From assembly GCA_044361745.1 (NCBI GenBank), contig JBIKIF010000008.1, positions 133 through 64,132 of the forward strand: DNA of 64,000 nt, read 5' to 3'. Below are positions 12,001-15,000 of the stretch, one piece after another; the first letter of the stretch is position 1; every line of letters starts with the position of its first letter. The stretch comes from Holosporales bacterium. Lineage in GTDB: Bacteria > Pseudomonadota > Alphaproteobacteria > Holosporales > CAZGKG01. The position numbers are program-made.

Positions 12001-15000
12001 TTTGACGGTCTTGAATTTTTTGAAAATCCCTCAAAGCGAGGGTCAGAAAACTCAGGGAGAATTAAGTGTAAAAATCCATCCTCTTCAAAGGCCGCAAAAG
12101 GAACGTCATTCAGTTCAATTTTTATCAAATCATCGACTGGAGTTTGGGTGATCACAACAGACTGAGAAATCGCCTGAGCCCCTAGGGTCCAAACCGTCAA
12201 GATACAAAAAAAGAGTTTATGAATCATTGTCATCATCATGTATTTGAAAAATCACCCTAAACAAAGAGGAACAATGGAAAACCATAGGGGAAAAGAATTA
12301 AAAAATAAAAAATAAAATGATTGGCAAAATAAAATAAAAAAAGAACTAATTTGCCTTTTTAAGACTTCTGCGCATGAGAATTCCTGCCCCCACAACACAC
12401 AGGCTCACCATCAAAACAATGAGAGATGCCAAGGCATTAATTTGCGGGGTCGCCCCTAAGCGGATACTTGAAAAAATCACCATTGGGAGTGTGGAAAAGC
12501 CTGGACCCGATGTAAAACTTGCGATCACAAGATCATCCATAGACAAAGCAAAAGCCAAAAGCCAACCCGAAAAAAGCGCTGGAGAGATAATGGGAAGGGT
12601 AATCAGAAAAAAAACCCGCGATGGACGTCCTCCTAAATCAAGCGCTGCCTCTTCAAGGGAGGCATCCACCTCTAGAAGACGGGCCCGGATAATCACCGTG
12701 ACATAGGCCAAAGCAAGAGTTGTATGGGCAATGGTAATCGTTTGAATGCCACGACCCAAAGGCCATCCCAAAATATTTTCTGTCGTCACAAAAAAAACAA
12801 GAAACGCCAACCCTGTGATCACTTCAGGCATAATTAAAGGGGCTGTCCCCATAATTCCCAAAAGACTCCATCCTCTGAACTCTCGAATGCGCACCAAAGT
12901 GAGGGCACACAACGTTCCGAGCACAACAGAAAGAGTCGCAGAAACCACAGCTACCCTTAAACTGACTAAAAAAGCACGCAACAACATGGTGTTTTTGAAC
13001 AGGGATTCATACCAATGAAAGGAAAACCCATCAAACGTTGTCATTGCGGAAGAGGAATTGAATGAAAATAAAACAACAAAAAGAATAGGGGCGTAAAGAA
13101 AGACGTAGCCTAAAATCATAAACATACAGATGGAAAAAGATCTACGCTGATACATCAATCACCCAGAGACTCTCTTGATGAACTATAAAACCTGAGGAAT
13201 CAAAATTTAAGCTCCCCAATAAACAGCTCTTTCACGAACATCCATATGAATAAAACAATCTTGGGCTTTTGAATAAAGGCCCACCCCGCCGGCACGAAAA
13301 GAACAGGCCGCCTTATGAGCATTTTTCAAGACGCGAACTGGGAATCGAACATCAATCGCCTTCCCAAGGACATGAAGACTTTTCTTTGCAACACCACGAC
13401 TTTTTCTAGCAAGCATCAGATTCGTCTTAGGAGATCGATAGCCACAAATCACATCCATTGCTTGGGTATAGCCTAATTTCAATTTGAGAGAATGAATAAG
13501 ATCCACCAGCCGAGGATCAATCGCTTGCACATCTCCCGTCCGCCAATCCCTGAGGAAATGGTTGAGCTTCCTCATGGCAGATGGAATATAATGATCTTTT
13601 TCCCAATAGGGCCCTCTAAAGAATTCACCCGTATGGGTGTTGTGAAGATTCAACACTCTACTCGTGAGAGATTTGGGAAGAATGAGAGAGAACGCAGGGG
13701 CAGGAACCAGTAAAGAGCATGCAACACCTGAACCAAGTGTCAAAAAATGTCGACGGGATAAATTTTCCACACTCACTCCTCTCTCTCTCAATCTTCTTGA
13801 GAAGGCTAGCCTTTTTAAAGCTGAAAAACAACCTAACCTTTTCAAAAAAATCCTATGAATTTCTTAAAAAAAACGGTCTGAGAAAATTGGACTCTCGCTG
13901 TGGATGACTTTTATGACAGTGTGGATAACTTCACGCTCCCCTCACACAAGGAAAAAAGTCAACATTAAAAACAATTTTATCCACAGACTTAAAAATCACC
14001 CACAGGGCTGGGGATAAAATCTTCGTACAATAATGTTTCCAAAAGAATATCTGTGTACTATTCTGTGGATTAACGGATATCCCCATGCAGCAGATGGGAC
14101 TACTACTATTACAACCTTATATATCTTTATAAAGAAGAAGAGAGCTCATGGATTTTCTAAAACCTTTTCAAGGAGATCTTTTGTCCGTTCCTCCCCTTTG
14201 GCTTATGCGGCAAGCAGGACGCTGTCTTCCAGAGTATCTTAAAATACGCGCACAATTCCCTTCTTTTTTAGATCTGGTTTTAACGCCGGAAGCGGCTGCA
14301 GAAGTGACGCTTCAGCCAGTTCGTCGCTTTGATTTTGATGCAGCTATTTTATTTTCCGACATTCTGATCATCCCATATGCCCTGGGACAGCAAGTTGTTT
14401 TTTCTCCCAAACCCCACCTCTCCCCCTTATCCTTAGAAGATCCTGAATTTGGTTTATCTCTCGATCAAATAGAGAGCCGTTTAGAGCCTATTTATGAGAC
14501 AGTTCGTCAGGTAAGGAAAAATCTTTCTCCCCAAAAGGCACTCATAGGATTTGCAGGAAGCCCTTTTACAGTGGCGTCTTATATGCTGGAAGGCTCAGGT
14601 AAAAAAGACTTTATGGAGACTAAACGATTTGCGTTCAGGGCACCTGAAGCATTTCAAAAGTTACTCCATCTCATTTCAAAAACGACCCTTCAGTATCTGA
14701 AAGCGCAGATTGATGCTGGAGTTCAAGTCGTCCAGCTTTTTGAAAGTGCTGGAGGATGTGTTCCTTGGACAGAACTTGAGTCTTGGGTTTACGGTCCAAC
14801 TTCTTGGCTTGTGGAGGAATTAAAAAAAGTCTCTCCCCACACGCCCGTGATCGGGTTTCCTCGTGGTCTTGGGGCTTCTGTCGAAACATACGTTCAAAAA
14901 ACCCGTGTCAATGGTGTCTCTTTAGACACCACAATTGATCTATCAACCCTTTTGGGGGTTCCGGCCGTGATCCAAGGAAACCTTGACCCCGTTGTACTTC

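Follow-up and report, generated by a model that had tools for sequence, protein, structure and literature searches.

The DnaA-box cluster upstream of hemE

The window analysed here is a stretch of 64,000 nucleotides (bases 133-64132 of contig C8) from the genome of a Holosporales bacterium, referred to below as G000, whose assembly comprises 1.18 Mb in 16 contigs, is ~97% complete and has a GC content of ~50%. A divergent intergenic region near 14 kb in this window was found to contain a cluster of binding sites for the initiator protein DnaA (DnaA boxes). Judged from its sequence, this region (13771-14147) very probably serves this alphaproteobacterium as oriC, its chromosomal origin of replication, and would belong to the hemE-linked type known first from Caulobacter. 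Alphaproteobacterial origins have been placed beside hemE (PMC6393856, PMC1914354), and the first-pass annotation had proposed such an origin at this position. The proposal was supported by a box cluster found nowhere else in the genome, by the positions of the boxes in G001, the only genome available from the same family, by a module consisting of a box, a spacer, DnaA-trios and a DNA-unwinding element (DUE), by a core shared across the class, and by GC-skew minima at the homologous region in relatives.

The right boundary gene of the region is hemE (14148..15152, plus strand, start at 14148), encoding uroporphyrinogen decarboxylase (PF01208, E 6e-94), and hemH (15155-16147), hemJ and cyaY follow it on the same strand. 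To the left lie four minus-strand genes encoding a MepK-like L,D-endopeptidase (DUF882) with a Tat signal (13207..13770), an ABC permease, a TPR protein and a histidine kinase. The intergenic region had been given as 302 bp. We place the start of the mepK-like gene at the GTG at 13770 and not at the TTG at 13845, because of a GGAG ribosome-binding site, the Tat motif SRRHFL, an aligned ATG in G001 and a 187-aa gene call in independent assemblies. The true intergenic region therefore extends from 13771 to 14147 and measures 377 bp, with a GC content of ~36-38%. It was 100% identical in four other independent public assemblies, and this identity across samples rendered footprinting of the origin by strain polymorphism uninformative. 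An Rfam search of the window returned three tRNAs only, and no origin-associated small RNA.

All seven DnaA-box-like 9-mers proposed earlier were recovered at the same coordinates and with the same numbers of mismatches, two of them being perfect. The perfect boxes are TGTGGATAA at 13920..13928 on the minus strand and TTATCCACA at 13977..13985 on the plus strand, the latter forming an invariant block in an alignment of the region (alignment A1). Three further boxes, all on the minus strand, carry a single mismatch, namely TGTGGATGA at 13899..13907, TGGGGATAA at 14009..14017 and TGTGGATTA at 14064..14072. The last of these is the R-box of a conserved hemE-proximal pair, the other member of which is ATATCCCCA at 14077..14085 on the plus strand. 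This box has two mismatches and is the trio-proximal box of the unwinding module described below. The plus-strand sequence TCACCCACA at 13996..14004, also with two mismatches, is a weak DnaA-box-like element that is not kept in G001, and its function is uncertain. An eighth box with one mismatch (TTTTCCACA, 13763..13771, plus strand), which overlaps the GTG where the mepK-like gene begins, has no counterpart box in G001 and is probably incidental.

We then asked how unusual this cluster is within the genome. With 275 boxes of at most one mismatch in 1.18 Mb, 0.044 would be expected per 187 bp, as against 5 observed (Poisson P = 1.3e-9, or ~1.6e-5 when corrected for all windows). At least three such boxes within 200 bp occurred at the hemE locus only, and everywhere else in the assembly the number was two or fewer. 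The weighted box score was 15.0 upstream of hemE and 7.5 at the next best locus in the genome. Four or more DnaA boxes have been taken as indicative of an origin (PMC1914354). An equally dense cluster elsewhere, for example near dnaA, would have spoken against the proposal; a genome-wide search revealed none, and no box with one mismatch or fewer was present within 1.5 kb on either side of dnaA, which lies in the middle of contig C5, at ~102 kb, where the skew is monotonic. Two other loci were considered as origins and set aside. The region upstream of mraZ (C4:147.3-147.6 kb) is a weak box locus that contains one perfect box, reached a score of 6.5 and lies in monotonic skew, and the region upstream of uvrC (C4:62.2 kb) is also weak, again with monotonic skew.

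The boxes could in principle be a functionless accumulation by chance in AT-rich intergenic DNA. Perfect boxes are not generally enriched in the genome (13 observed against ~9 expected), and two of the seven boxes have two mismatches, as this explanation would allow. It does not readily account for the corrected P value of the cluster, for the alignment of the core across the class, or for the conservation in position of four boxes in G001, where they lie at -248, -226, -168 and -72 from the hemE start compared to -249, -228, -171 and -71 in G000. The counterparts at -226 and -168 are perfect boxes, and that of the box at 14077 is a perfect TTATCCACA in the same position. HemE is only 51% identical between the two genomes, and the sequence between the boxes has diverged. 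The conservation thus effectively refutes an origin of the cluster by chance, which we consider to have next to no likelihood.

A candidate unwinding module and its conservation

The hemE-proximal box pair is followed by elements that resemble the basal unwinding system (BUS) of bacterial origins. As published, the box of a BUS has no more than two mismatches and is separated by 0-16 bp, most often 13, from a run of three or more trios, each with adenine in the middle (PMC8287927). The trios follow the consensus 3'-[G/A]A[T/A]-5'. A GC cluster lies before them and the DUE beyond (PMC7561715). In G000, the box at 14077, with its two mismatches, is within the limit for a BUS box. The spacer TGCAGCAGATGGGA (14086..14099) is 14 nt long, which is also within the published range, and was 14 nt in G001 and 13 nt in six of eight distant relatives. 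Four consecutive trios, one more than the minimum, occupy 14100..14111 on the minus strand, reading CTA CTA CTA TTA on the top strand and 3'-GAT GAT GAT AAT-5' on the bottom strand. The trio-proximal end of the spacer is G-rich, so that a short GC cluster (GGGA) precedes the trios, and an AT-rich tract follows them, in agreement with the described layout. The order of boxes, CTACTACTATTAC and DUE on the top strand matches a published example from C. difficile, and the 13 nt of CTACTACTATTAC recur unchanged within the C. difficile trio sequence 5'-CACCTACTACTATTACTACTATGA-3' (PMC7561715). A BUS pattern with four or more trios was found at eight loci genome-wide, of which the other seven were T-runs, and a scan of the region for BUS elements detected no second module. 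In G001, the module consists of a perfect box, the 14-nt spacer and then CTA CTT CTA.

The AT-rich sequence beyond the trios, CAACCTTATATATCTTTATAAAGAAGAAG (14112..14140), abuts the ribosome-binding site and ATG of hemE and is the candidate DUE. The 40-mer of lowest stability in the region, at 14100-14140, has a dG of -41.8, compared to a window mean of -55.7, and every aligned relative has an AT- or T-rich tract at the corresponding place. A second and weaker AT-rich tract on the mepK side (13811..13870, dG about -45 to -47) adjoins no trio module and probably holds the promoter or leader of mepK. The AT-rich flanks had been put forward as a possible unwinding element, and the tracts themselves are real; they are moderate ones, in that the region as a whole has 36% GC and its best 40-mer ranks only ~10th in the window.

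A cluster of DnaA boxes directly upstream of two divergent genes may indicate that the locus is a DnaA-controlled promoter region of hemE and/or mepK, or a DnaA-titrating or DnaA-reactivating site of the datA/DARS type, which would modulate DnaA-ATP and not support initiation, with the true origin located elsewhere and possibly unassembled. A promoter or titration site would need no module of box, spacer, trios and AT-rich tract in a fixed orientation. Moreover, the activity of the hemE promoter is itself part of origin function in Caulobacter (PMC6393856), so that regulation of hemE and an origin at this site are compatible. Further evidence on this alternative came from the skew analysis described below.

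To follow the arrangement into other lineages, we compared the region with other alphaproteobacterial genomes. Gene order was scrambled relative to both G001 and G003, a genome of the same order, except for a block comprising the permease gene, mepK (not in all cases), the origin region, hemE and hemH; G001 retains the complete series permease-mepK-region-hemE-hemH. In a set of 68 diverse alphaproteobacterial hemE loci, the mean number of boxes with at most one mismatch per 400 bp was 1.16 on the upstream side of hemE and 0.066 on the downstream side, an 18-fold difference. A core was conserved with nine more distant genomes, in which TGTGGATAA is followed by 4-6 nt, (T/G)ATCC(C/A)CA, 13-14 nt, four to five triplets (CTA/CAA), CCTT and an AT-rich tract. 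In alignment A2, which covers the hemE-upstream regions of these distant origins, the box at 14064 aligned with TGTGGATA(A/T), and the ATCC(C/A)CA columns of the box at 14077 were nearly invariant. A strict search for the core found it facing hemE at 8/68 loci and in the opposite orientation at 0/68, and the spacer was 13 nt long in 6/8.

The triplets themselves were less uniform. The tract of CTA and CAA lies on the hemE-sense strand as repeated C-[A/T]-A, corresponding to 3'-G(A/T)T-5' on the bottom strand, and the middle base of the triplet in those relatives was A or T in about equal shares (hemE-upstream regions L041-L120, alignment A2), so that in many lineages the bottom strand departs from the central-adenine rule. 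The CAA and CCA triplets of more distant relatives (3'-GTT and 3'-GGT-5' on the bottom strand) break the central-adenine rule, to which G000 conforms canonically. We put forward, tentatively and with more doubt than confidence, that alphaproteobacterial hemE-linked origins share a conserved unwinding core formed by the inverted pair TGTGGATAA / ATCC(C/A)CA, a spacer of constant length (13-14 nt) and a tract of C-[A/T]-A with a period of 3 nt; many lineages might then use a deviant DnaA-trio in which thymine replaces the central adenine, with G000 and its sister keeping the GAT form. Deviant trios have been anticipated (PMC8287927), and as far as we could see, the literature contains no description of them in Alphaproteobacteria.

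From the arrangement of these elements we infer the most likely course of initiation. DnaA-ATP would occupy the high-affinity boxes at 13920 and 13977 (perfect) and those at 13899, 14009 and 14064 (one mismatch), and would thereby be concentrated on the hemE-proximal pair at 14064 and 14077. From the box at 14077, a DnaA oligomer would cross the 14-nt spacer onto the bottom-strand trios at 14100-14111, stretch the trio strand and melt the AT-rich element at 14112-14140, where the replicative helicase would be loaded and from which forks would leave in both directions. Transcription of hemE would have to begin either inside the box cluster or upstream of it and to proceed across the unwinding element, as it does in Caulobacter.

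GC skew and alternative positions of the origin

Cumulative GC skew over the whole genome, skew at codon position 3 calculated per gene and corrected for gene strand, and a two-state hidden Markov model (HMM) were used to look for a replichore switch. A cumulative minimum had been predicted at ~14 kb of the window. As expected from this, the four genes at 7.9-13.8 kb had negative codon-position-3 skew, and most genes beyond 14.1 kb had positive skew. Further to the left, the next 7.7 kb were positive again and the HMM called no switch, so that the result in G000 is ambiguous. The change in gene orientation at hemE, which had been offered as a sign of diverging replication forks, is real and carries little weight, as gene-strand bias is weak genome-wide and a second flip occurs at 16.9 kb. 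Gene-orientation bias was dropped as origin evidence for the same weakness. GC skew was likewise dropped as a decisive test in this assembly, there being no clean switch at 14 kb and wrong-sign blocks elsewhere: the HMM showed such blocks of 4-18 genes on contigs C4, C5, C10 and C16.

Several observations weigh against an origin upstream of hemE. The leftmost 7.7 kb of the window (bioY, tkt, rpiB, era, amn, ubiA and rlmH) return to positive skew, ftsW and dapD at 16.9-18.9 kb are negative, and the HMM leaves all of C8 in one state with no replichore switch. The AT element is only moderately unstable, with the ~10th rank in the 64-kb window given above. The consensus for integration host factor (IHF), WATCARNNNNTTR, had no match on either strand, a consensus regular expression being a weak test, and a scan for sigma-70 promoters gave no plus-strand match for hemE, so that a hemE promoter of the sigma-70 type was not detected. 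To these we add a cumulative skew minimum at 25 kb on C4 and the presence of the only two parS sites of the genome close to it, which are considered below.

The disorder of the skew is likely to be a consequence of frequent rearrangement, given the scrambled synteny, and skew has been described as a poor predictor of origins in Alphaproteobacteria (PMC1914354). The anomalous left flank is not a chimera or an assembly artefact, since the same gene order was present in an independent Logan assembly, an ENA assembly and a JGI contig; none of the independent assemblies extended beyond the left end of C8, all of them breaking just left of bioY. GC content is 0.50-0.60 over bioY-tkt-rpiB-era and 0.41-0.45 over the stretch from the kinase gene to dapD that holds the origin region, with a sharp step between them. 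The step coincides with the change in sign of the skew at 7.7-7.9 kb, and this is probably the boundary of a rearrangement.

Skew was also examined in relatives. The 376-kb contig of G003 showed a clean V-shaped minimum at 310 kb, with hemE at 309.9-310.8 kb and its upstream region just beyond. Local minima were found at 22.0 kb in G031 (21.5 kb predicted) and at 36 kb in G033 (35 kb predicted), in both cases within 1 kb of the core. On the 25-kb contig of G001, the minimum at ~9 kb begins at the hemE-upstream region. The skew of G032 was broad and ambiguous, and G034 gave no usable signal. These results bear on the possibility of a DnaA-regulated promoter or titration locus. The lack of a clean switch at hemE in G000, and an assembly of 16 contigs with ~3% possibly missing, would leave room for an origin elsewhere; against this, the homologous region lies at skew minima in G003, G031 and G033, and no other candidate was found in 97% of the genome. 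Taken with the directional module, this makes a mere promoter or titration site unlikely, and a hemE-linked origin the preferred interpretation.

We also considered an origin near C4:25 kb, where a V-type kink in skew lies beside the two parS sites, TGTTCCACGTGGAACA at C4:27778 and TGTTTCACGTGGAACA at C4:27978, 200 bp apart between tsf and pyrH (C4:27778-27993). Sites of this kind are normally origin-proximal. The intergenic gaps of C4:0-34 kb contain no DnaA-box cluster, each having at most a single one-mismatch box or a few scattered 9-mers with two mismatches, and the kink itself falls in the 81 bp between two co-oriented genes, where the highly expressed ubiE-rpsB-tsf-pyrH-frr cluster begins. 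In G003, a distance of 31 kb separates parS from the skew minimum at hemE; the parS sites of G000, 28 kb from an end of C4, can therefore be reconciled with an origin that lies 14 kb inside C8. An origin on C4 thus appears very improbable, and the region upstream of hemE remains the favoured site. The parB gene was located at ~112.8 kb on C10, a different contig from that carrying parS (C4).

A search of the genome for dif or another indication of the terminus gave no convincing site. The closest was a weak dif-like sequence, TTCTATAGAGAATATATATTATGACAAAT, with the XerD-arm-like sequence TTATGACAAAT, at C10:122948-122976, 450 bp from the right end of C10, which is unconvincing as a terminus marker. 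As deposited, the eight largest contigs (C3, C4, C5, C8, C9, C10, C14 and C15) all have net positive GC skew, amounting to ~1.0 Mb compared to ~0.16 Mb that is negative. Such uniformity has P ~0.008 if contig orientation is random, and may reflect a convention of the assembler or pipeline, or chance.

Relation to known origins and their regulators

The region shares its site directly upstream of hemE, with hemH downstream, with Caulobacter Cori and the hemE-linked origins of Rickettsia, Wolbachia, Ehrlichia and Anaplasma (PMC6393856, PMC1914354, PMC4468827). It also has in common with them a DnaA-box cluster, an AT-rich region and a dnaA gene located elsewhere, and its hemE-proximal box, which is of the ATCCCCA type, is similar to variant boxes of other alphaproteobacterial origins. 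Unlike these origins, its left boundary gene is mepK-like, and not DUF299/COG1806 as in Caulobacter and Rickettsia or the CBS-domain gene of Wolbachia; the second boundary gene is known to vary, as the Wolbachia case illustrates, and is not strictly defining (PMC1914354). Two boxes in G000 are perfect high-affinity boxes of the E. coli type; the boxes of Cori are only moderate (G-boxes) or weak (W-boxes). G000 further differs in having no TTAA-N7-TTAA site for CtrA in the region and only one GANTC, and in that no IHF consensus, CcrM or GcrA was found.

The similarity to the BUS of Bacillus subtilis, C. difficile and H. pylori (PMC6669920, PMC8287927, PMC7561715) extends to the box, the spacer, the four trios, their G-rich lead and the AT element. 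The trio-proximal boxes of G000 are inverted (R then F) and not tandem, and the origin is linked to hemE and not to dnaA. With E. coli oriC, it shares a position apart from dnaA and an AT-rich unwinding element next to DnaA boxes that follow the TTATCCACA consensus; it differs in lacking a GATC cluster or SeqA-type control, the 13-mer repeats and any match to the IHF consensus, and in its gene context.

We examined the genome for the regulators known from Caulobacter. CtrA is encoded, the match to NF045991 scoring 388 bits where 350 is the cut-off, and no TTAA-N7-TTAA site was found at 13600-14400. CtrA sites have not been seen in most alphaproteobacterial origins (PMC4468827). A CtrA-like sequence with one mismatch, TTAA-N7-TTTA, is present at 13965-13979 and overlaps the perfect box at 13977, which recalls the CtrA site over the G2 box in Caulobacter; AT-rich DNA often contains matches of this kind. 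The genome also encodes HU and an IHF-alpha-like protein. The motif scan contained only one GANTC, and GATC was absent from the intergenic region. Searches of the 97%-complete genome did not find GcrA (PF07750), a CcrM-type methyltransferase (PF01555), DUF299 (PF03618) or a second, Hda-like protein with the Bac_DnaA domain (PF00308). This suggests a reduced alphaproteobacterial cell-cycle circuit, in which the origin is probably regulated without direct CtrA binding or CcrM methylation. Because the Caulobacter overlay is absent here, with no CtrA sites, CcrM and GcrA not found and DUF299 not a neighbour, the data support the view that the core of DnaA boxes and trios is ancestral and that control of the origin by CtrA is a lineage-specific addition.

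An origin at this position would be fixed for an uncultured freshwater alphaproteobacterial lineage with a small genome (~1.2 Mb), whose nearest sampled relative has ~50% HemE identity. It would imply that linkage of the origin to hemE, together with a Bacillus-type module of DnaA box and trios, persists in a heavily rearranged and reduced genome. Features of some, if modest, interest are a canonical trio like those of Firmicutes within an origin of the hemE type, the perfect boxes compared to the weak ones of Caulobacter, the lack of the Caulobacter overlay, and the class-wide core, with its fixed spacer and relaxed triplets. The position could also serve as an anchor for estimating growth rates from metagenomic read depth by the peak-to-trough ratio.

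It would, in addition, supply a zero coordinate from which to orient and close the genome. When contig ends were compared, the left ends of C8 and C4 matched nothing, and the right end of C8 joined the left end of C9 through a 129-nt repeat. Most contig ends (for example those of C1, C3, C7, C10, C14 and C15) fall in a family of related tandem repeats. Exact overlaps of 127 nt were seen between the right ends of C1 and C14, between C2 and C11, and among the right ends of C6 and C12 and the left end of C16, the breaks in the assembly being driven by repeats.

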